64,000 nt of DNA from Candidatus Limnocylindrales bacterium (GCA_035604955.1 DATNHM010000017.1:16853-80852), one strand, 5' to 3'. Counted from the stretch's first letter, positions 1-11,902 are shown. Numbers and translations are program-made. Notes: generated by a model from the letters alone, not told the origin.

Positions 1-511
1 GATTGGTGACGAGTTCCTTGCGCGAAGCGAGCTGCTCGACGATTTCACCTGGTTCCCAGAGTGGCTTACAGAGAAACGCGATAGCGCGCTCGGGCTGGTC
101 ATGGTGCGCGCGCACGATGAGGTAAGGACCCAACAGCAAATGTCGGTAGAATCTTTGGAAGTTATCTACTTGGGCGATTAGGCGCGCCTCGTCCTTGGGA
201 TTTCGCCGCCCGTTCCCATCCTTCGGACATACTTCATCGAAATAGAAAAGCGTGAGCCATGTCCACAATCCTTGGTCACGCTCTGGCAAATCAACTTTGG
301 CCGTTCCGAACAACTCGTTGAGAAAGCGTCCAGCTTCCAAACGATTGTTGAAACTTCGCTTTGGGACATCCACATCACCGGGTATCAGTTCGGTTAGAGC
401 CGGGTCTTCCAACATTTCGACGGGGGGCGGCAGCGTGGGCTCTAGCGTAAGCCGCGCTCGATATGTTGCAAACGCTGCCACGCCATCGGGGTTGAAACGT
501 TGCAGTTTCAT
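1..511 (-). CDS. Hypothetical protein, 5' part only (170 codons visible; gene continues past the left edge). Last visible gene of the XRE-Dcm-GHKL operon.
   Basis: Absent from the ORF track because it has no stop in the window. Hand translation of the minus strand from ATG 511..509 gives MKLQRFNPDGVAAFATYRARLTLEPTLPPPVEMLEDPALTELIPGDVDVPKRSFNNRLEAGRFLNELFGTAKVDLPERDQGLWTWLTLFYFDEVCPKDGNGRRNPKDEARLIAQVDNFQRFYRHLLLGPYLIVRAHHDQPERAIAFLCKPLWEPGEIVEQLASRKELVTN, open to position 1. Its ATG overlaps the TGA of the upstream ORF (ATGA, 508-511). No family recognised. Confidence 0.6.
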   Translation of the reverse strand, partial: MKLQRFNPDGVAAFATYRARLTLEPTLPPPVEMLEDPALTELIPGDVDVPKRSFNNRLEAGRFLNELFGTAKVDLPERDQGLWTWLTLFYFDEVCPKDGNGRRNPKDEARLIAQVDNFQRFYRHLLLGPYLIVRAHHDQPERAIAFLCKPLWEPGEIVEQLASRKELVTN

Positions 512-1278
512 CTACCACCCTCCTCGTCGCAGGTCCGATCCCAAGTGGAGCGGATTTCGAGCCGTCGACAAAATGCTGCCACCGCCTCCTCAACCCAGTT
601 GTCACGGTCAGTTCGCAACTCAAGTGGAGGCACCGGCCCCAATCCACCAAGATTCTTCGCGAATCGTACCCAATCCGCCGGCCACCCGCCTTCCTCGTCG
701 TCTTCCGTCCAGCTTTCGTCAACTAGAGCGTGCGATAGCATTCGGCGCAGGACTTCAGGATAAACGAGCGCGATGAACTGTGGCGAGCGGGCCATCTCTT
801 TCCAACTCGGCTTTGCTTCGTTGTTGACCAATAGTTGCGGCGGATCGTGCTCAAAGTCCAGTTTCCAGAGCTGCTGACCAAGTGCATCCGGAACGGGCAC
901 AAGCAAATGCCGCCGACGATCGTCCGCCTCGCCAGCCTTCACGAAGGGAATCCCGTCAGCCTCTCCCAGTAGCTTGTGATGTTCCTGTCCGGGCGGCTGC
1001 ACCACTCGCACGCGGAAAAGCAAGCCGTCGGGAACATCAAACTCCACCAGCCGGCGATCAACGGGCACGCGCAATGAGGACACTGTACCCGACGACCATT
1101 GCATCCAAAGGTTCTGCCGATGCGCTTCGACCCAGACTTCAGCGTTGCGCGAGAAGTTGTAGTCTGCCAAGCGCAAGCCTGCGTCGAAAACCCAAACGGA
1201 CTTTTCCTGACGGAGTGTAATAGAAACGTCTTTCCGCCCAATCTTCCTACGACCGGTATAATTAAACGTCCGCTTCAT
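508..1278 (-). CDS. Hypothetical 256-aa protein, fourth gene of the XRE-Dcm-GHKL operon
   Basis: Track ORF. ATG at 1278 is preceded by a GGGGGAG Shine-Dalgarno-like run (minus strand, 1286..1280). It overlaps the GHKL gene end by 17 nt and the next start by 4 nt. The C-terminal half is acidic and Trp-rich (WTEDDEEGGWPADW). No family or catalytic motif recognised. Confidence 0.65.
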   Translation of the reverse strand: MKRTFNYTGRRKIGRKDVSITLRQEKSVWVFDAGLRLADYNFSRNAEVWVEAHRQNLWMQWSSGTVSSLRVPVDRRLVEFDVPDGLLFRVRVVQPPGQEHHKLLGEADGIPFVKAGEADDRRRHLLVPVPDALGQQLWKLDFEHDPPQLLVNNEAKPSWKEMARSPQFIALVYPEVLRRMLSHALVDESWTEDDEEGGWPADWVRFAKNLGGLGPVPPLELRTDRDNWVEEAVAAFCRRLEIRSTWDRTCDEEGGR

Positions 1279-3175
1279 TCTCCCCCTTAAGTTCGATAGC
1301 CCGTATCACGAGGTCGCGCTTGGTGTCGAAGCCGGAAATTTCAAATTGAAAGTCTGGCTTTCTGATTTCCAGTTCCAAGAAATTGGCGTCCGCACGCGAA
1401 ACGAAGACTCCATTCGCTCGGTCCTGTCGAAGCGGCGCGCGAATGAAAGCGAAGTCGTCTGGAGCCCAACGCTTGATGGCGTTGCCGCGACGGACAGCGT
1501 AGCCTGCTTCAATTCTAATTCTCGCAGGAAAAGACTCCAAGGTGGCTTTGCCGGGTTTTACCAGAAACCCACCTTTCACTTGCTCCAACTCAAACCGTTT
1601 TGGTGGCGGAGGCGGAAGTGGCGGAGGTAGTCCAACCACCGTGCCGGACTCTTTCTCTTTGGGCTTCTTCGTTGGCTCTGTCGATCCTTCGTCCGTCGGC
1701 AAAAAGAAAATGTCCAGCAGGAGATTCGGGTCGCCCTTCGTCTCAGCCGCATGTAGCCGCTGCATGATTTCATAAACGCTCCGCGTTACGAACTTGATTG
1801 TGAACGGGCCGTAGAAGTAGCGGTTATGAAACTTGGGCGAGTCCTTCTGCCATTGAGTGTGATTGACGCCCTCGGAGTCACCGAGCAAGCCAGCCAACGG
1901 CGGGTCTTCGACAACGACGAGTGAACGGTTACCTGACATCTGAGGACAGCGCACATCCGTGATGACTATGCCATCTCTCAGAAAGATCGGCCTGTGCCCC
2001 GAGTCACGACATGTGGCAACATACACTGTGGAAAATGACATGCTTTCGGTTCCGCCTTCAGTTTTTGGACGCACTCGCACCGGTACCCTGATTTCCACAT
2101 GCTGCTGCGATTCCAATCGTTTGCGAATTTCGTCCAGCTTCGCTTCGGGAAGCAACTGATCGCCGAAGTCCTTCCAGTCCGGATGGGTCGTTTCAGGCAG
2201 AGTGATTCTCTCCGCGGGTATCGCAGTCGATGCCCAGCTTGCGAATTCAATTACAGCGGCTTCCGGCACTGGCAGAAGTGAGCGGTGCGTCGCCAACGTT
2301 TCGGCATCAATCCTCCAAGATTCCTCGGGACCGTCCAAGTCAACGACAAGTTCACCAAGAAGAATCGGCCAGAAAAAACTTCGGACGATGCCGCGTCTGA
2401 GGTCGGCAACATTCACACGCTCATCCACTGAAGGCACGACGATGGATAGGCCGGGTTCACTTCCGCGCTTCAGCCCAAACACCTTTTCAAAGGAATTGAT
2501 AAATTCTGAGTCTGTGACTGGTTTCACTGGTTCATCTGCAATCTCACGGCATCCGAACCAACCGTCCGGCTGGTAATCTTGTTCCCCAATGGAATGAGTC
2601 CGCACGACAGCCGAACCCATCAACACGCGCGATGGATTGTCGGCGCGCACCGTCAGGCCGAACATTGAGTGGAGCCGGCTGGAGGTGGGGAATACCTGCT
2701 TACCAATGCCCCAGCGACCTAGGCTTTCACCACTCTTTGGTGATTGGCCTTCGGCACGAAAGAAACTAAAGAATGCATTCTGCTCAGCTCGTTCCAACCG
2801 CCACTCATGAACATCGCCGGTCAGGCCTTTAGTACCGAAGTCCTCGAATACGAGATAGCCGCTGCTTTCGTCAAACAGCGTGTTCAAGTTGCGCAGGTTA
2901 AGTCCGCGCTCGAAATTCACGCGGGCCGAGGAAAAATGATTTGCGAGGAATTCTCGCACTTCGGACGGCGCGTTGGGAACAAACTGAATACTCACCTTGA
3001 CTTGCCGTACGCCGCCTGCATCGCGTCGCGCGGCGTCGAGCGAATTTTGAATGCCTTCGCGAACTAAAGCCTCACTCAAATTCTCTAGGCTCTCAGCGGT
3101 AAAAAAGGCATCGTTTGCCGAATCTCTCATGCGATCACATGGTCGGCGCGGGTTGAAGTGCCATAGAGGATTCAC
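1262..3175 (-). CDS. GHKL-superfamily (Bergerat fold) ATPase, sacsin/MORC-like, 637 aa, with a large unassigned C-terminal region
   Basis: N box E40-GIQNSLDA-48, G1 box 111-EDFGTKGLTG-120 and G2 box 152-LGRWGIGKQVF-162 occur in the canonical order and spacing. A poly-proline hinge GLPPPLPPPPPK precedes the last ~110 aa. GTG start at 3175 overlaps the dcm stop (GTGA). An alternative ATG lies at 3130. Confidence 0.8.
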   Translation of the reverse strand: MNPLWHFNPRRPCDRMRDSANDAFFTAESLENLSEALVREGIQNSLDAARRDAGGVRQVKVSIQFVPNAPSEVREFLANHFSSARVNFERGLNLRNLNTLFDESSGYLVFEDFGTKGLTGDVHEWRLERAEQNAFFSFFRAEGQSPKSGESLGRWGIGKQVFPTSSRLHSMFGLTVRADNPSRVLMGSAVVRTHSIGEQDYQPDGWFGCREIADEPVKPVTDSEFINSFEKVFGLKRGSEPGLSIVVPSVDERVNVADLRRGIVRSFFWPILLGELVVDLDGPEESWRIDAETLATHRSLLPVPEAAVIEFASWASTAIPAERITLPETTHPDWKDFGDQLLPEAKLDEIRKRLESQQHVEIRVPVRVRPKTEGGTESMSFSTVYVATCRDSGHRPIFLRDGIVITDVRCPQMSGNRSLVVVEDPPLAGLLGDSEGVNHTQWQKDSPKFHNRYFYGPFTIKFVTRSVYEIMQRLHAAETKGDPNLLLDIFFLPTDEGSTEPTKKPKEKESGTVVGLPPPLPPPPPKRFELEQVKGGFLVKPGKATLESFPARIRIEAGYAVRRGNAIKRWAPDDFAFIRAPLRQDRANGVFVSRADANFLELEIRKPDFQFEISGFDTKRDLVIRAIELKGENEADV

Positions 3176-4833
3176 GGCTTAATCTCCTCAAGGTTGCTTC
3201 GCTTTATCTGGTGATCGGACGCCTTCGCAACTGCACGGATGCGCAATCCAGAACGTTGGGCTTCCACACAGTAAAAATCTTCTTTGCAAATCTCGCCGGC
3301 ATCATGGCGGCGCCAAGCCTCGCGTCCCAAAAGTTCCAGTGCGACCGGCCAACCGCTACGGGTATATCGCTTTGCTAACAGTTCCTCATAGCCGGGTAGC
3401 GCTAGCTGATCAGGACTGATTTGTTCAAAGCTACTCCCGTGATCGAGTGCGTTATCCGGATGCAGGTCAGGAAAGAGAAAGAGCAAGGCACGCCAGCCAT
3501 GAAGGAATTGTTCCGTGGGCAGAGCGCGAAGGCCCCGCCGGTCGAGTTGGGCGAGTTCTCGCAGTTCGTAGGCGGCAGCTTGGCGGGTTTGCGCCTTCGG
3601 AGTACCGGTCTCCAGCCCAGCATGTTTCTGCGCGCGGCTATTCGTTTCAATACGCGCCGGATCAGAGGATGGCGTTTCGAGAAACTCCTTTATCTCGTAG
3701 CCAACGGCCTCGGCGACAAGTGGTGGCACAGCGTTGCCGATGATTCGGAACTGATGCGTGCGCGCTACTGGAAATCGAAACCAATCCGGAAAGCTTTGCA
3801 CGCGCGCGGCCTCGCGCGGAGTGAGCGTACGTGTTTGCGTCGGATGGATGAACATCAATCCATCCTTGGCCAGATGCGCAACGATGGTTGAGCAAAGCCG
3901 TTCACGATGCTGGCGTGTGTAACGGTCGAGAAACACACTGCGGTCGTAGGGGAATTCCATCTTCTCACCACGGGCGATGGCTTGATCGGCGGTTTCACCT
4001 TCGCGCAGCCGGTCAAAGTCACGGAGATCACGTTCGTTATGCGGACGGGAACGGTGTGCGGACAACTTCGCGGCTTCGGCAATTTCGAGAACGTTTTTCA
4101 GATAGTGCGTTGCCGCTTCACCACGTTCAGCTAAGAAATCTTTGCGTCGGCCTAAATCGTAATCGCGTTCTTCAATGCCTTCTCCGGCGACGAGCGGCGG
4201 TAGGTCACCAATGGCGTCCCACAAAGTTGGCGAGCCAAACGCCCGCGACGCTGGCTTCAGTTCACTTAAAAAATAGCTGGGCACATCATTCCGCACACCG
4301 ACGACGAGCTGACGACGGCGTTTCTGGGGCACGCCGAGTTTCCAAGCCTCCTCGACTTGTGCGTGAACGCGGTAGCCGAGCTTGCGGGCATCGGCTTGCA
4401 CGAGTGTAAAGAATTTGCCCTTCGCTGCACTCTGGATGCCCATCACATTTTCCATTACAAACACGCGCGGGCGAAATGCCGCCACGTAATCGAGGAACAT
4501 GCGGTAGAGGTAACGGCGCTTGTCGCGCTTCACACGTGAGCCGTGGTTGGCGGCGTCAACCTGTCGCACAGTGCTGAACCCCTGACACGGCGGCCCGCCT
4601 ACAATGACGTCCACCTGATTTACGGCAAGTTTCGCCATGAGTTTGTCCGGTGGAAACTTGGTGAGGTCTTTACAGAGCGCCATGGTTTCCTTGGGAAAAT
4701 TCGTCTTGAAGGTAGCGATGGCTTCTTTGTTGAAGTCAATCGCCGCCAGCACATTAAAACCAGCGCGTTTCATCCCCAAGCTGAAACCGCCACAGCCGCA
4801 GAAGAGATCAATGCACGTAAGCGGCGTGCTCAT
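3172..4833 (-). CDS. dcm: DNA (cytosine-5)-methyltransferase with a ~168-aa C-terminal extension of unknown function
   Basis: All C5-MTase motifs are present. I: DLFCGCGGFSLG. IV: GGPPCQGFS. VI: FVMENV. VIII: QKRRRQ. IX: REAARVQSFPD. X: GNAVPPLVAEAVG. AGGAG lies 8 nt upstream of ATG 4833. The ATG overlaps the stop of the HTH gene (ATGA 4830-4833). The conserved core ends near aa 385 of 553. Confidence 0.93.
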   Translation of the reverse strand: MSTPLTCIDLFCGCGGFSLGMKRAGFNVLAAIDFNKEAIATFKTNFPKETMALCKDLTKFPPDKLMAKLAVNQVDVIVGGPPCQGFSTVRQVDAANHGSRVKRDKRRYLYRMFLDYVAAFRPRVFVMENVMGIQSAAKGKFFTLVQADARKLGYRVHAQVEEAWKLGVPQKRRRQLVVGVRNDVPSYFLSELKPASRAFGSPTLWDAIGDLPPLVAGEGIEERDYDLGRRKDFLAERGEAATHYLKNVLEIAEAAKLSAHRSRPHNERDLRDFDRLREGETADQAIARGEKMEFPYDRSVFLDRYTRQHRERLCSTIVAHLAKDGLMFIHPTQTRTLTPREAARVQSFPDWFRFPVARTHQFRIIGNAVPPLVAEAVGYEIKEFLETPSSDPARIETNSRAQKHAGLETGTPKAQTRQAAAYELRELAQLDRRGLRALPTEQFLHGWRALLFLFPDLHPDNALDHGSSFEQISPDQLALPGYEELLAKRYTRSGWPVALELLGREAWRRHDAGEICKEDFYCVEAQRSGLRIRAVAKASDHQIKRSNLEEIKP

Positions 4834-5057
4834 CCATTCACTCCTTCCAGAAGTTTCGACGGCGTAATTCCCAGTGCCTTGGCAATCAGAACAACGTTCT
4901 TGATTCCCGGATTGCGGACGCCACGCTCAATGTCGCTGAGGTAAGTGCGGTCGAGGCTGGCCTTTTCCGCCAGAGCCTCTTGGGTAAGGTCTTTTGCCCG
5001 TCGGTGCTTGGCTACGCTCTGGCCTAACGAACGAAGAACCGGGTCATGCTTTGGCAT
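4830..5057 (-). CDS. XRE-family helix-turn-helix protein (controller/C-protein-like), 75 aa
   Basis: HTH_3 pattern DLTQEALAEKASLDRTYLSDIERGVRNP. It is the first gene of the operon and is translationally coupled to dcm. Confidence 0.85.
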   Translation of the reverse strand: MPKHDPVLRSLGQSVAKHRRAKDLTQEALAEKASLDRTYLSDIERGVRNPGIKNVVLIAKALGITPSKLLEGVNG

Positions 5058-5107
5058 GGCCAGTATATGACTCGTTTGTCGGAAATCAGTCTATCGGGGA
5101 TAAGTGA

Positions 5108-5122
5108 CAATTTTTAAAATTG
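5108..5122. promoter_or_regulatory. 15-bp AT-rich palindrome (CAATTTT-T-AAAATTG), candidate operator upstream of the XRE gene
   Basis: Perfect 7-bp inverted arms around a central T, 51 bp upstream of ATG 5057. It overlaps a TTGTCA (-35-like) hexamer on the minus strand (5111..5106). No convincing -10 partner at correct spacing. Confidence 0.3.
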
Positions 5123-5140
5123 AATTCGCGGCGGTCGTCT

Positions 5141-5240
5141 GTGGACTATCGGCTACAGGATTTTCGCGGAGCGAAAATAGGAGATGGGAGATAGGAGATG
5201 GAAGATGAGAATCCGCGTGCATCCGCGTTCATCTGCGGTT
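5141..5240. repeat. Composite intergenic repeat, copy 1: 26-mer head, purine-rich word tract, TCCGCG..TCTGCGGTT tail
   Basis: GTGGACTATCGGCTACAGGATTTTCG (5141-5166) is identical to 6296-6321. It is followed by AGGAGATGGGAGATAGGAGATGGAAGATGAG and ATCCGCGTGCATCCGCGTTCATCTGCGGTT. Confidence 0.8.
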
Positions 5241-5508
5241 GACCGAATGGGTGATCCGTCTTGATTCGGTTTGTGACCGCGATTGCGCGACTGTGGCGCG
5301 GTGTGACAGGGCCCTGAGCCAGCATGACTCATCCCGGGCGATGTGTGTTCATGGATTTCTACTGAAATGCCCCCAAAATGCCCAAATGTACTCGTGGCAT
5401 TTCCGGTGCTTGAAGGATTCGCCGCGTTAAGCGGCTTGCTTAATGAGATGGAGTCGAGATGGTCCTGGACTGATCTTTTTTCGCAATAACCAAAACGAAA
5501 GGATTGTC

Positions 5509-6212: not shown

Positions 6213-6295
6213 GTTTCAAATATTCGCGCGCCCGGCGTACGCGAAAAGCTGCGCCACGCATCAGGTACGCGTAAAACTGGGCCACGCGACAGGCC

Positions 6296-6412
6296 GTGGA
6301 CTATCGGCTACAGGATTTTCGGAGGCCGGGGGACAGAGGACAGAAGACAGAGGACGGAGGCCGGAAGACGGAAAGCTGAATTCATCTGCGTTTATCAGCG
6401 TAATCCGCGGTT
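6296..6412. repeat. Composite intergenic repeat, copy 2 (same head / purine tract / tail layout as 5141-5240)
   Basis: Identical 26-mer head at 6296-6321. It is followed by GGACAGAGGACAGAAGACAGAGGACGGAGGCCGGAAGACGGAAAG and the tail TTCATCTGCGTTTATCAGCGTAATCCGCGGTT. Confidence 0.8.
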
Positions 6413-7575: not shown

Positions 7576-9923
7576 TCACGGCCTGAAAATGAGGCGGTAG
7601 AACTTGGCCGGAGCCTGCGTTGTGCCGCCGCCTTTACTGGCCGCCGCATAAGGACTGGTCACATTGGTGTCGCCGATCCACGTGCGGAGGTCGGTGGATT
7701 CCTGCAACATGCTTGTGCCATACCATTGCAGCAATATGTTCTGGCTGGTCTGGCTGACGTTGAGGAGCAACGGCGAGACGCCCACCGACGTAATGGTGAA
7801 GGAAGACACCTGGGAGCTGACTATCTGCAAGGCCGCTGGCGCGTTTGAGAACGTAACGTTCTCCGGAGTCACCTCGAGATTATCGCATGTCACTATCTGG
7901 CCTGCGATTGACGCGGACGTTGCCACACTGTCATCCATCGATGCCGGAGCAGAACCGTTAGGACCCACCACTGTGTCAGTGGTGTCGGCCATCCTTTGTG
8001 CCACGGCCAGGGACGCCCCGCTTTGGTGGGTTGCCTCCGCCACCGGCGCTCCTTGATAGTAAGCCTGCACGGTGTAGGTGCTGGCGCCCACCGGCGAAAA
8101 GTCGGCGCTGAGCACATAATTGCTGGTGCCTGCCTTGGTTTCGGTCAGCGTGCCCAATACGCCATTGGTAATGCCGCCGTCGGTCCCAACGATTTGCGAT
8201 TGGATATAGGCACCCACCGGCAGCGTGTTCGACGGATCCAACTCGTTCCATCCCACATCCAAATTCGTCAGGCCACCCGGCAAGGTGATGGACACGCCGT
8301 CCTGGCCTGCGCTGCCCAAATTGGAGATGACCAAGGCCGACCCATCCTGGCCGCCGCTGCTCAGGTTGGAGATAACCTCAATAGAGGCTTGGCCCAATGA
8401 TGTGTTGGTCAAGCCTGCATACGGCAGACTTAGATTCTCGCTCGCAATCGCGAGGTCGGGCACCTGCGAAGCCGTGATCTGAAAGGCGGTTGGTTTGACG
8501 CACGTGCCCAGGTTTGATGGAATAAAATACACCTTGTTGGCGCTCACGATCTGGCCACCCGGCAACTGCATTACCTCGGACTGCACACAGTCCATCGTAT
8601 CGCAAACGTAGCAGCCGTCATCATCCCATTCCCTGTCCCAGGATGTGCCGTCCGGATCAATGCTGAGGATACGGATAATGGCTGACGGCGTGTTGGTGGT
8701 CCCTTGTCCCACCAAAATTCCGTTGAGGTAGGCCTGCACAAGGCAGTTGCTCACCCCCAGTGGCGAAAAGTCCACGTGCACTGCATAGTTCGAGATTCCC
8801 GCCTTGGTCATTCTATCCGCCGCCAATATCCCGTTGGTTACAGTGCCAAAGGTGCCGATCATCGAGCTCTGCACATAGGCGCCGACCGGCAGTGCGTTGC
8901 TTGGGTCCACATCCTGATATTGCACGTCCAGCGCCAACAGATTGGTCGGCAGGGCGATGGTTACGCCGTCCTGTCCGCTGCTGGTCAGGTTGGAGACGAT
9001 CAAAGTCACACCATCCTGGCCTGAGCTGCCCAGATTGGAGATCACCTCGAAAGAGGCTTGGCCCAATGATGTGTTGGTCAATCCTTGATACACGATGCTT
9101 TCATTCTCACTGGTGATCGTGATGGATGGTATTTGGGAAGCGACAATTTGGAACGCAGTCGGCGCAATGGGAGCCTGCGGATTTTCCGGCGTCACATCAA
9201 TCTCGTCGCACGTTACAGAGGTTGTGCCTATCAACGCACTGAATAAACGCACGCGGTTGATCCTGCCCGTGCCATCACCCAGCATTGTGCCCGCGGCCAA
9301 CGAAAGGTTATTCAGCACGGCCAGGGACGACCCGCTTGGATTGGTCGTCTGCGCTACCAGCACCCCGTAAAGATAGGCGCGGACGATATAACCGCTCGCG
9401 CCGACCGGCGAATAGTCCGCGCTGAGCACATAATTGCTGGTGCCGGCCTTCGTCTGCGTCACCGTGCCCAACACCGCCTTGTTGACGCCATTGGTGGGGC
9501 CGACCATCTGCGATTGGACATAGGCCCCACCGGCAATGTGTTGGAAGGGTCCAGGTCCTCATAATTCACACTTAGCGCCGACGTGTTCGCAGGCATGGCG
9601 ATGCCGACGCCGTCCTGTCCGCCACTTGTCAGATTGGAGACGATTAAAGCCGACCCGTCCTGGCCAGTGCTGCCCAGGTTCGAGATGACCAGAAAAGCCT
9701 GCCCCAATGATATGTTGGTCAGGCCCTGATAAACCACGGTATTGGCCAGTGCGGCCGGGGCCAAACCCAGTATGACCAGGCTGACCAGCCACCACCGGGT
9801 CCATCCCCGGAAGCAGGGGGACACTGGCCGGGGATGTGGAATTGTCACCGGAATGTAACAAAGAGAACTGCGAAAATATGTCTTCATAGACGTTTGATTT
9901 GGATCTTGGTTTTTAACTTCCAA
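7576..9923 (-). pseudogene. Secreted repeat protein (~780 aa if intact) split by a 1-nt frameshift. Three ~235-aa repeats plus a C-terminal FYRL module.
   Basis: Track ORFs 9459..9923 (signal peptide plus first repeat) and 7576..9507 are two frames of one gene. The repeat ...DPSN(T/A)LPVGAY(V/I)QS... is broken at LPVG. The minus strand reads CCG GTG GGG CCT where the other copies read GTC GGC GCC TAT and GTG GGT GCC TAT. One G appears to be missing from a G-run (C-run 9525-9528 on the plus strand). It could be a sequencing error. Confidence 0.7.
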
Positions 9924-10194: not shown

Positions 10195-11103
10195 ATGAAA
10201 ACCATCTTCAAAGCACTTTCCCCCTCCGCAGGTCTTTTATTGGGCACGGCGGTGTGTGCCAACGCTATTGTCCTGCCGCCGCCAGCGAAGAATCTGTTCG
10301 CGGCGGATTTCTACAACGGCAACATTTATGAAATCACGCCCGGCGGCACACCCAGCACCTTTGTCTCCGGACTGGGCATGGATGAAGCGGTGGGGCTGGC
10401 CTTTGACAGTGCGGGCAATCTCTTTGTGGCGAACTTAAACAGTTGGGCCGTCACCAGGATTACGCCGGGTGGTGTGCAGGGCACTTTTGCTTCCGGGCTG
10501 GGCGCCCCCTGGGGAGTGGCCTTCAACAGCGCGGGCGATTTGTTCGTCTCGAGCTATCTCAATGGCAGCATCTATGAATTCACGCCCGATGGCACGCAAA
10601 CCACCTTTGTCTCCGGGTTAAGCAATCCTGAGGGACTGGCCTTTGACAGCGCCGGTAATTTGTATGAAACGGATTATGGCAGCGGCAGCGTCATTAAAAT
10701 CACTCCCGGCGGCGTCAAAAGCACCTTCGCCACCGGACTGGGGGGCGAACAAGGGCTGGCCTTTGACAGCGCCGGCGATTTGTTTGTGGCGGTTTCGACC
10801 AGCGGCATCGTTTATGAAATCACTCCCGGCGGGGTAAAAAGTGTTTATGCCTCCGGTTTGGGCAGTCCGGGAGGCCTGGCGTTTGACAGCGCGGGTGATC
10901 TGTTCGTGGGCGATGCCTCCAGTGGCAACATCTATGAATTTACACCGGGCGGAACCAAAAGCACATTTGCCTCCGGGCTGGGTCAATTGGCGGGACTGGC
11001 CTTCCAGCCCGTGCCGGAACCGGCGGCTTTGGGTGTGCTGTCCTTCGGCGCCGCCGTGCTCCTGGCCCACCGGCGCAAAAATCCGGTGGCAAAGTCCAGT
11101 TGA
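10195..11103 (+). CDS. NHL-repeat six-bladed beta-propeller protein with PEP-CTERM sorting signal
   Basis: N-terminal signal peptide. Six ~44-aa repeats IYE(I/F)TPGG..STFASGLG.P.GLAFDSAGNLFV. C-terminal VPEPAALGVLSFGAAVLLAHRRK. Confidence 0.85.
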   Translation: MKTIFKALSPSAGLLLGTAVCANAIVLPPPAKNLFAADFYNGNIYEITPGGTPSTFVSGLGMDEAVGLAFDSAGNLFVANLNSWAVTRITPGGVQGTFASGLGAPWGVAFNSAGDLFVSSYLNGSIYEFTPDGTQTTFVSGLSNPEGLAFDSAGNLYETDYGSGSVIKITPGGVKSTFATGLGGEQGLAFDSAGDLFVAVSTSGIVYEITPGGVKSVYASGLGSPGGLAFDSAGDLFVGDASSGNIYEFTPGGTKSTFASGLGQLAGLAFQPVPEPAALGVLSFGAAVLLAHRRKNPVAKSS

Positions 11104-11329
11104 AAGTTAAAACAGCCCCGGGTATCAGCCTTCGCCGGGTTACGGCGCAACAGGTGCCCGCCCCACGTTTGCGTTCTCTGTTCCTTGTGGTTTAAAATGA
11201 AACTTAACAGAAGCAAAGGGCGGCTTCATTGATTTTTCTGATTCCCGGTTTGATCTTTTCAATTCACGCTTTTTCCAACATGCGGTTAATGTCTCCTGCA
11301 TGAACGGAGAAAATTCAAACCGAACAGTC

Positions 11330-11902
11330 ATGAAGATTGTATTCGCCCGCCTGCCCGTGTTCCTGCTGGTGATTTTGCCGGTCGCCTTTACCCCGGGTTG
11401 TGCGACCCCCTATCTTTGGAACCGCACGTCAGAATTCCAATGGAAACCCGTGCCCGCCGTGCAGGTGCTGGCCGTTACCAACACGAACCAGCAGTGCGAC
11501 GCGGTGGTGGTGTTCAAGCAGAGTGCACAGGTGGGCATAAACTACTTCTCCAGAGATGTTGCCTGGCGCGTCAGCCAGTCGTCCGACGACCTGGCCACGA
11601 CATCCGGGGCCATTCGTTACCTCACCAATTCCTCGCTCGGAGTTGAATCCCTGCCGGTGTATGCGCCGGGAAAAGTGCCCGTCAACGCGACTTCCCAGCC
11701 GCCGGGTTACGTGGTTTTGAACCGGACCAACAAGGTGCTTGTGGTTTACCGGGACGGGGTGCCATCCGGTCCGTACACGTTGCCCGTCAGCCTGCATCCG
11801 AAAAAAACCACGCAGCGGGTGCTGTTAACGCCGGTTACGGTGCTGTTGGACGTGCCGATGTGCGCTTTCGGGCTGGTGGTCTATGTCGCGCTCCATTTGT
11901 AG
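11330..11902 (+). CDS. Hypothetical lipoprotein with C-terminal TM helix
   Basis: Track ORF 11300..11902. MKIVFARLPVFLLVILPVAFTPGC has a lipobox-like PGC. No family recognised. Confidence 0.55.
   Translation: MKIVFARLPVFLLVILPVAFTPGCATPYLWNRTSEFQWKPVPAVQVLAVTNTNQQCDAVVVFKQSAQVGINYFSRDVAWRVSQSSDDLATTSGAIRYLTNSSLGVESLPVYAPGKVPVNATSQPPGYVVLNRTNKVLVVYRDGVPSGPYTLPVSLHPKKTTQRVLLTPVTVLLDVPMCAFGLVVYVALHL

Follow-up and report, generated by a model that had tools for sequence, protein, structure and literature searches.

A putative restriction-modification-like cassette coupling a Dcm methylase to a GHKL ATPase triad in a Candidatus Limnocylindrales bacterium

Introduction

PDC-M33 has been described as a 'phage defence candidate' made up of three genes; it occurs 98 times and was defined from cassettes that lie within BREX, DISARM and Type I restriction-modification (R-M) loci (Payne et al. 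2024, bioRxiv 10.1101/2024.01.29.577857). A second described group, the paraMORC2 proteins, was treated by Iyer, Abhiman and Aravind (2008), and the passages of that paper used here give a 'strongly conserved ExxxH motif' as its hallmark, predict a function in R-M together with cytosine methylases and Vsr, and propose DNA looping for paraMORCs (PMC2292703). Here we compare with these groups a five-gene operon on the minus strand (positions 1-5057) of a 64,000-nucleotide (nt) stretch of DNA from Candidatus Limnocylindrales bacterium, which we refer to as the window. The operon encodes a controller protein, a cytosine DNA methyltransferase (Dcm) with a C-terminal module named DcmC, and a triad of genes designated A, B and C (genes 3, 4 and 5). 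With moderate confidence we regard it as a compact, horizontally mobile, R-M-like defence cassette whose Dcm labels self DNA and whose restriction arm is the GHKL triad.

Results

The five-gene operon

The five open reading frames (ORFs; Table 1) overlap at every junction, by 4, 4, 17 and 4 nt along the operon, with an ATGA shared by the stop of gene 1 and the start of the dcm gene, and this is consistent with one translationally coupled unit. Gene 1 matches Pfam HTH_3 (5.7e-16) and the PADLOC model Control_protein (1.1e-19). Residues 6-382 of the gene 2 product form a complete C5 domain, covering positions 2-323 of the 324 in Pfam DNA_methylase (2.7e-63); this protein also matches TIGR00675 dcm (4.4e-54), and its PADLOC matches stay at a generic Dcm level (DrmMII 2.6e-81, DruM 1.2e-77). 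DcmC comprises residues 386-553, a C-terminal extension of 168 amino acids (aa) with no match in Pfam or in a sequence search of the PDB. A preliminary description of this DNA had given the ORFs and their overlaps exactly so, and its identification of a controller-like XRE helix-turn-helix protein and of a complete C5 methyltransferase with some 168 extra residues is borne out. Its remark that the operon is low in GC, with the hint of foreign origin that this carried, falls: GC content is 55.6% in the operon and 57.7% in the remaining window, a difference within one standard deviation (SD) of 5-kb windows (2.5%), which rules out a compositional island.

The sequence left of position 1 was recovered. 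The window belongs to a 72.9-kb JGI contig (locus L001), to which its left end is 100% identical across the 600 bases aligned; on this contig gene 5 is complete and is followed by HigB, HigA and then a convergent Vsr gene. The operon thus consists of five genes with no ordinary restriction endonuclease after them, which rules out the alternative, raised in the preliminary description, of such an enzyme hidden left of the window. The sole nuclease near the cassette is Vsr, whose gene is outside the window. In most related loci Vsr directly follows the cassette on the same strand, so that the HigB/HigA toxin-antitoxin pair of the present locus looks like a later insertion.

Linkage to Dcm and modularity of the cassette

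A scan of one genome per species yielded 22 related loci, nearly all of them in metagenome-assembled genomes of Verrucomicrobiota and one in a Binatia genome; the set includes relatives at 48% (a Spartobacteria genome) and at 30% (a Chitinophagaceae genome). A metagenome scan anchored on a closer alignment of gene C added 68 more. Wherever the contig allows, A, B and C are contiguous and in constant order. We counted linkage in the 26 loci that have at least 2 kb of sequence on either side, a few of which are the same region from different assemblies. Dcm stood directly beside A-B-C in all 26, the triad occurred without Dcm in none, and Vsr was found in 20, often as the next gene of the operon, after C or after Dcm.

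Two layouts were distinguished. The upstream layout starts with a controller gene, where detected (some dozen loci have an XRE match), continues with a Dcm of 540-615 aa that carries a tail of 165-190 aa, and ends with A-B-C; in the downstream layout A-B-C is followed by a tail-less Dcm of about 506-525 aa. Methylases of the upstream lineage are 53-88% identical to the window's Dcm and those of the downstream lineage 26-32%; in one case Dcm is encoded on the other strand. In a neighbour-joining tree built from the A proteins (no bootstrap) the two layouts are intermingled, while A-B-C are still 60-80% identical, from which it follows that the methylases have been exchanged repeatedly. DcmC is fused to Dcm in the upstream layout and, in many downstream layouts, is a separate ORF after Dcm with an open frame of 85-174 codons, mostly 119-160; judged by these sequences, the two states represent a fusion/fission link.

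The triad itself is also replaceable. The loci L024 (whose sequence L057 repeats), L025 and L074 lack most of A together with some or all of B, and other genes stand there (Table 1), flanked by gene C and by a Dcm of the same type. Their HNH_2 match reaches 7.7e-13, the HNH proteins are 49-71% identical to one another, and a second XRE-type controller was seen in L024/L057 and L025. Since a controller and an HNH_2 protein stand in place of A-B in three or four loci, this slot can hold an ordinary restriction enzyme. Decay was asymmetric, in that broken A/B genes occur beside an intact Dcm and no intact triad was seen at a locus without a dcm gene.

The cassettes occupy varied housekeeping contexts. 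One of them, in L037, has a MazE/PIN pair and two Phage_integrase genes at its flanks, which suggests an integrative island of about 8 kb. In some loci with a downstream Dcm, L037 included, we further observed an ORF of 94-95 aa immediately upstream of gene A, where the controller and Dcm sit in the other layout; it has no Pfam family and is 59-61% identical between loci.

Table 1. Positions and contents of features in the window and at related loci. A dash marks the minus strand.
Feature	Sequence	Position	Strand	Description
Gene 1	window	4830-5057	-	75 aa, XRE helix-turn-helix controller (C) protein
Gene 2	window	3172-4833	-	553 aa, C5 cytosine DNA methyltransferase (Dcm) with C-terminal module DcmC
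Gene 3 (A)	window	1262-3175	-	637 aa, GTG start, GHKL-type ATPase
Gene 4 (B)	window	508-1278	-	256 aa, no family
Gene 5 (C)	window	1-511	-	first 170 codons of a 241-aa all-alpha protein, open at window edge
Gene 5, complete	L001	10768-11493		241 aa
HigB/HigA pair	L001	11708-12739		between gene 5 and the convergent Vsr gene, just left of window position 1
Upstream regulatory region	window	5058-5156	-	20-nt motif and putative operator half-sites
20-nt motif	window	5137-5156	-	upstream of the controller gene
20-nt motif, second copy	window	6292-6311	-	2 mismatches
643-aa ORF	window	7576-9507	-	several internal repeats
Replacement genes	L024 (identical in L057)	10685-11727		second controller protein and/or HNH_2 endonuclease
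Replacement genes	L025	10593-11616		second controller protein and/or HNH_2 endonuclease
Replacement genes	L074	948-1688		second controller protein and/or HNH_2 endonuclease
Frameshifted Dcm	L017	8346-9999		ORFs of 218 aa and 381 aa
Phage_integrase genes	L037	7075-7809, 15261-15758		with a MazE/PIN pair, flanking the cassette
94-95-aa ORF	L037	9684-9971		upstream of A
94-95-aa ORF	L039	9698-9982		upstream of A
94-95-aa ORF	L043	5024-5305		upstream of A
94-95-aa ORF	L068	5022-5303		upstream of A
Second GHKL protein	L008	11354-14790		GHKL protein of 694 aa and a protein of 449 aa, directly after the downstream Dcm
Distant triad	Halorussus, Halomicrobium (L028, L034)			divergent dcm beside triad
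Distant triad	Halobacterium sp. DL1 (L030)			no annotated dcm within 6 kb; unannotated gene between A and C
Distant triad	Rhizobium (L027)			Dcm 2.6 kb downstream
Distant triad	Arthrobacter (L031)			upstream Dcm-Vsr-type II endonuclease; downstream Shedu
Distant triad	Paenarthrobacter (L033)			type II endonuclease and dcm
Distant triad	Enterococcus faecalis (L029)			helix-turn-helix protein and AIPR upstream
Distant triad	Synechococcus (L032)			DUF4420 (PD-(D/E)xK) upstream; leucine-rich-repeat-variant protein downstream

The GHKL ATPase encoded by gene A

Protein A carries motif I (E40-N44-D47, in ExxxQNxxDA), motif II (D112-G114-G117, in DFGTxGLTG) and motif III (G153-G156-G158, in GRWGIGK) of GHKL ATPases, none of which varies across 56 homologues or across distant relatives. 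The long, GTG-started form is backed by conservation of the first 15 residues in homologues. No Pfam or NCBIfam family was matched and no curated GHKL model (HATPase_c, HATPase_c_3) was reached at threshold; one of the 56 homologues reaches HATPase_c, at an E-value (0.029) that falls below threshold. Superfamily membership therefore rests on a motif-register test: between the A-family profile and E. coli HtpG the three motifs all fell into register (hhalign, E 3.6e-4), and the alignment scored 34.3, while 100 shuffles averaged 14.6 (SD 2.4) and reached 21.9 at most. The proposal in the preliminary description that gene 3 encodes a GHKL ATPase thus stands on the three motifs and their register with HtpG, and finds no backing from curated models. 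By these alignments the profile resembles Hsp90-type GHKL proteins. In hhalign comparisons with E. coli MutL motif I alone was aligned, and the score against a genuine HATPase_c_3 protein, from L008, was no better than that of shuffled controls.

Behind the ATPase part follow an E435-x3-H439-x2-W442 motif (E435-G-V-N-H439), a linker rich in proline and, at the C terminus, a domain of about 100 aa. The three named residues are invariant among the near A family; E, H and W are all kept in the Rhizobium, Halorussus, Arthrobacter, Paenarthrobacter and Synechococcus relatives, and the Enterococcus relative keeps E and H. This motif and the Dcm/Vsr context of A fit paraMORC2, as judged by the motif and by the description in the passages of Iyer et al. 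cited above. The paraMORC modules HEF_HK and Response_reg_2 (PMC8011034) could be ruled out, as PF19191 and PF19192 were unmatched. No relative of A was found among the viral contigs of IMG/VR.

At L008 a second, different GHKL protein was observed, which matches HATPase_c_3 (5e-17) and HATPase_c (1e-16) and is accompanied by a 449-aa protein without a family. From its gene order, this extra pair may be a second paraMORC-type module that uses the same methylase.

Proteins B and C

A, B and C each have hundreds of close homologues at 60-90% identity, all unnamed. For B these number 219, always encoded between A and C, and the protein was found on four public contigs, one of which is L001. B has no family match in Pfam, NCBIfam or PADLOC. 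Its AlphaFold2 model (predicted local distance difference test, pLDDT, 83.6) shows nine strands and then four helices, that is, a mainly beta-strand N-terminal domain and a helical C-terminal part, and the N-terminal peptide has invariant T4, N6, T8, G9 and R10. A Foldseek search of the PDB with this model gave nothing significant (best E-value 0.03); the weak top matches were fibronectin-type-III and cytokine-receptor domains, which are immunoglobulin-like beta-sandwiches.

The family of C comprises 1605 clusters at 50% identity and has no Pfam or NCBIfam family. The protein was modeled by AlphaFold2 as all-alpha (pLDDT 90; predicted template modelling score 0.88), and Foldseek gave no match in the PDB or in the BFVD viral structure library. 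Conserved residues are Tyr-Arg-His, Arg-Arg, Gln and Asp. When a diverse profile was compared with DUF6339-type proteins by hhalign, 147 colinear columns were aligned with 72% probability and an E-value of 3.3e-5, and C is thus a probable remote relative of DUF6339 / PDC-M33C. A relationship with SspF was considered and rejected: the match spans 43 residues (E 0.03-0.056) and was taken as chance or as a common short GLWxWL motif; for SspF the sole feature given is a Walker A motif (PMC8092258). Among the best 150 representatives of the C family we noted a single clearly longer form, P0377, of 368 aa, in which about 130 extra residues form an N-terminal extension (132 residues) without a Pfam family.

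Distant triads and their relation to PDC-M33

A tblastn search of plasmids retrieved distant A proteins of 25-28% identity, each of whose genes is followed by a B-sized and then a C-sized gene (Table 1). The proteins of these distant triads match PADLOC PDC-M33A, B and C as well as Pfam DUF6339. Near and distant A proteins align over their N-terminal 300 residues with an hhalign probability of 99.9%, and residues 32-283 of the window's A match positions 29-270 of the 627 in PDC-M33A (6.9e-14). No match to PDC-M33B or PDC-M33C was obtained for B and C of the window, nor for those of the 48% and 30% relatives, at E-values up to 0.1-1. A relationship between B and the distant B proteins found no support in hhalign (1%), and the two correspond in position alone. 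Of A, the ATPase part alone matches PDC-M33A; since B and C do not match their models, PADLOC would not call the system of the window. On the strength of these profile comparisons we place the cassette as a remote, Dcm-coupled branch of the PDC-M33 group.

The region upstream of the operon

Upstream of the controller gene lies a 20-nt motif, GTAGCCGATAGTCCACAGAC. The exact pattern recurs upstream of the controller gene in L005, L018, L024 and L057, with variants (one or two changes) in L067 and L070, and it has two matches in the window where 0.04 are expected by chance. Being conserved in related cassettes from other genomes, positions 5137-5156 probably belong to the cassette and not to the host, and the motif may mark the boundary of the cassette, serve as an insertion target or act as a promoter element. 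Motif GTAGCCGATAGNCCACAGAC has a second copy, with 2 mismatches, 1.15 kb from the first, and a longer stretch around this copy also resembles positions 5160-5250. The dispersed repeat reported at 5141-5240 in the preliminary description comes down to short pieces (26 nt exact at 6296-6321 and two weaker matches of 30-39 nt), and its first 20 nt (5137-5156) are the conserved motif.

Nearer the start codon there are ACTTAT and GACT(5091-5088)-N15-AGTC(5072-5069) half-sites, which resemble C-box operators and may have such a function; no canonical double C-box was found upstream of gene 1. Clearer C-box-like sequences (ACTTATAGTCCGTGG...), of the ACTTATAGTCCGT type, occur upstream of the controller gene in L077, L025 and L038.

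Elsewhere in the window we observed a 643-aa ORF, unrelated to the cassette, with internal repeats such as 'TNTSLGQASxEVISNLxSxGQDG'. A gene of equal length is called at the matching place on JGI contigs and has no Pfam family.

Discussion

In the R-M-like cassette that we propose, the controller protein would set expression, Dcm would mark host DNA with 5-methylcytosine, the nearby Vsr would repair the T:G mismatches that arise from Dcm methylation, and A, B and C together would act as the restriction arm against DNA without the mark. Because very similar A-B-C genes are found with two unrelated Dcm lineages and with DcmC either fused or free, we infer that target recognition comes from the methylase, with DcmC as the module through which it docks to the ATPase complex. 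By analogy, such docking would resemble Type I, Type III and BREX systems, in which the methylase is part of the restriction machinery. The GHKL dimer might then clamp or loop DNA in an ATP-driven manner, as the cited passages propose for paraMORCs (Iyer et al. 2008). Since no component has a recognisable nuclease fold, both cleavage and non-cleaving exclusion were considered for the damaging step; it may lie with ExxxH in A, with the conserved Tyr-Arg-His, Arg-Arg, Gln and Asp of C, or in exclusion without a cut. The view of the preliminary description that these genes form a methylation-linked self/non-self module is strengthened by their co-occurrence across genomes (A-B-C contiguous, Dcm adjacent throughout), by the methylase swaps, by the existence of DcmC as a separate gene elsewhere and by the HNH replacement.

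Several observations weigh against this proposal. In L017 the dcm gene is frameshifted and A-B-C are intact; the split may be an assembly error, the genome being metagenome-assembled, or a real counter-example to methylase dependence. Some of the distant triads, e.g. those of E. faecalis and Synechococcus, have no adjacent methylase, which argues that the triad is not intrinsically methylase-dependent. The controller gene heads one operon that holds all genes including the methylase gene, where in the usual arrangement the C protein controls the restriction gene separately from the methylase gene. Pfam, NCBIfam and PADLOC searches with A, B, C and DcmC revealed neither a nuclease or helicase nor a known domain for reading DNA, none of the four gave a hit below E 0.1 in sequence searches of the PDB, and the Foldseek nulls for B and C count in the same direction. 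This agrees with the preliminary description, which had seen no nuclease or helicase signature in the visible part and no recognisable family for genes 4 and 5. Finally, in the full-text library searched no paper naming PDC-M33 or DUF6339 was found.

The absence of a nuclease fold in spite of confident models for B and C, and the GHKL ATPase motifs of A, could also be read to mean that the triad is a non-cleaving, MORC-like exclusion machine, which would clamp or compact unmarked DNA and, like BREX or a xenogeneic silencer, keep it from being replicated or transcribed. Eukaryotic MORCs act on DNA in methylation-linked silencing. The DNA looping proposed for paraMORCs (Iyer et al. 2008, PMC2292703) points the same way. 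We nevertheless think this unlikely, given that an HNH endonuclease takes the same slot in three or four loci and cutting fits equally well, that the invariant ExxxH and the conserved Arg, His and Asp of C could form an unrecognised active site, and that distant triads pair with PD-(D/E)xK or AIPR genes. We are doubtful, too, of a further idea, in which a MORC-like GHKL clamp with two folds not seen before is recruited by a docking domain on the methylase and neutralises unmethylated DNA without a conventional nuclease; the means may be topological entrapment or compaction, or a new catalytic site formed from ExxxH and the DUF6339-like subunit. If true, prokaryotes would have an equivalent of the methylation-linked silencing that MORCs carry out in eukaryotes.

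The distant triads without an adjacent Dcm, beside AIPR or DUF4420, would be explained if A-B-C were a free-standing PDC-M33-type defence, for instance an abortive-infection sensor and effector, that happens to share a mobile island with a Dcm-Vsr pair to which it is unrelated; the Dcm next to the triads of Arthrobacter and Paenarthrobacter already has its own type II endonuclease. The 26/26 linkage in the window's clade, the stop-start overlap of Dcm and A, the independent recruitment of two Dcm lineages and the presence of DcmC, fused or free, make this quite improbable for the present cassette. Lastly, the constant company of Dcm, and of Vsr in 20 of 26 loci and often in the same operon, raises the question of whether A-B-C is a MutL-like accessory to Vsr in very-short-patch repair of T:G at Dcm-methylated cytosines. 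MutL stimulates Vsr in E. coli, and both A and MutL are GHKL ATPases. However, the A profile is Hsp90-like and matches MutL at motif I alone, 6 of the 26 loci have no detectable Vsr, and the controller, toxin-antitoxin pairs, integrases, HNH replacement and defence-embedded PDC-M33 relatives all point to conflict, so that we consider a repair role very improbable.

If the R-M-like cassette that we prefer is the correct reading, a restriction arm would have been built from a GHKL ATPase and two new folds, and a methylase would pass its target recognition to that arm via a portable docking domain. This would give an experimental footing to the 2008 proposal of bacterial MORC relatives that respond to methylation marks in R-M. 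The natural variants, namely the methylase swaps, free versus fused DcmC and the HNH replacement, already define the experiments.

Among established systems, a classical C-controlled Type II R-M system shares with the cassette a controller, a complete C5 methylase, a nearby Vsr and a compact, mobile form, but the window has three proteins without a nuclease signature in place of a single endonuclease, and its controller gene heads the whole operon, methylase included. Mza (mzaABCDE) is reportedly a validated defence system (Gao et al. 2020) with a MutL-like GHKL ATPase, a Z1 domain protein, AIPR and a cytosine methylase. The cassette resembles it in holding a Dcm-type methylase and a GHKL ATPase in one operon, and the distant triads accompany AIPR and DUF4420, which are typical of Mza-like loci. 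It differs in having no Z1, AIPR, sigma factor or PD-(D/E)xK gene and in an ATPase that is not of the HATPase_c_3 type; none of the five window proteins matched a PADLOC Mza model or Pfam Z1, AIPR or DUF4420. With DISARM class 2 and Druantia type II the generic methylase match is all that is shared, the window having no DrmA/B/C or DruE/F/G partner. The methylation-associated defence system (MADS) is an eight-gene mad1-8 locus to which the five-gene content is dissimilar, and no MADS model was among the library matches of the window proteins.

The likeness to paraMORC2 and PDC-M33 is closer, and the earlier statement that the composition of the operon matches no named system was too strong in view of its resemblances to PDC-M33A, DUF6339 and paraMORC2, all of them computational. 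With paraMORC2, as presented in the passages of Iyer et al. (2008), the cassette shares a GHKL ATPase with ExxxH located C-terminal to the ATPase part, the company of a cytosine methylase and Vsr, and a sporadic, laterally mobile distribution, with relatives here in a cyanobacterium, in Gram-positives, and on Rhizobium and haloarchaeal plasmids. The general partners named there are helicases and restriction-fold nucleases, neither of which is present in the cassette, and those passages contain no equivalents of B, C or DcmC. A match to paraMORC R-M modules, which the preliminary description had considered, therefore extends to ExxxH and the Dcm/Vsr context but not to genes 4 and 5 or DcmC. With PDC-M33 the likeness lies in the three-gene order and sizes (A about 630, B about 250-345 and C about 230-280 aa), in the match of the window's A to PDC-M33A and in the alignment of its C with the distant C proteins, whereas the three-family cassette string of PDC-M33 is without the translationally coupled Dcm, DcmC and controller protein of the window. 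Since the theme was predicted in 2008 and the triad flagged in 2024, the cassette is not categorically new. These precedents (PDC-M33, DUF6339 and paraMORC2) are all computational, and the Dcm extension and genes 4 and 5 appear in none of them; what is new here is the obligatory, modular coupling to Dcm, the fusion and fission of DcmC, the B and C proteins without matches among solved structures, the recurrent replacement by HNH genes and the scale of the family.

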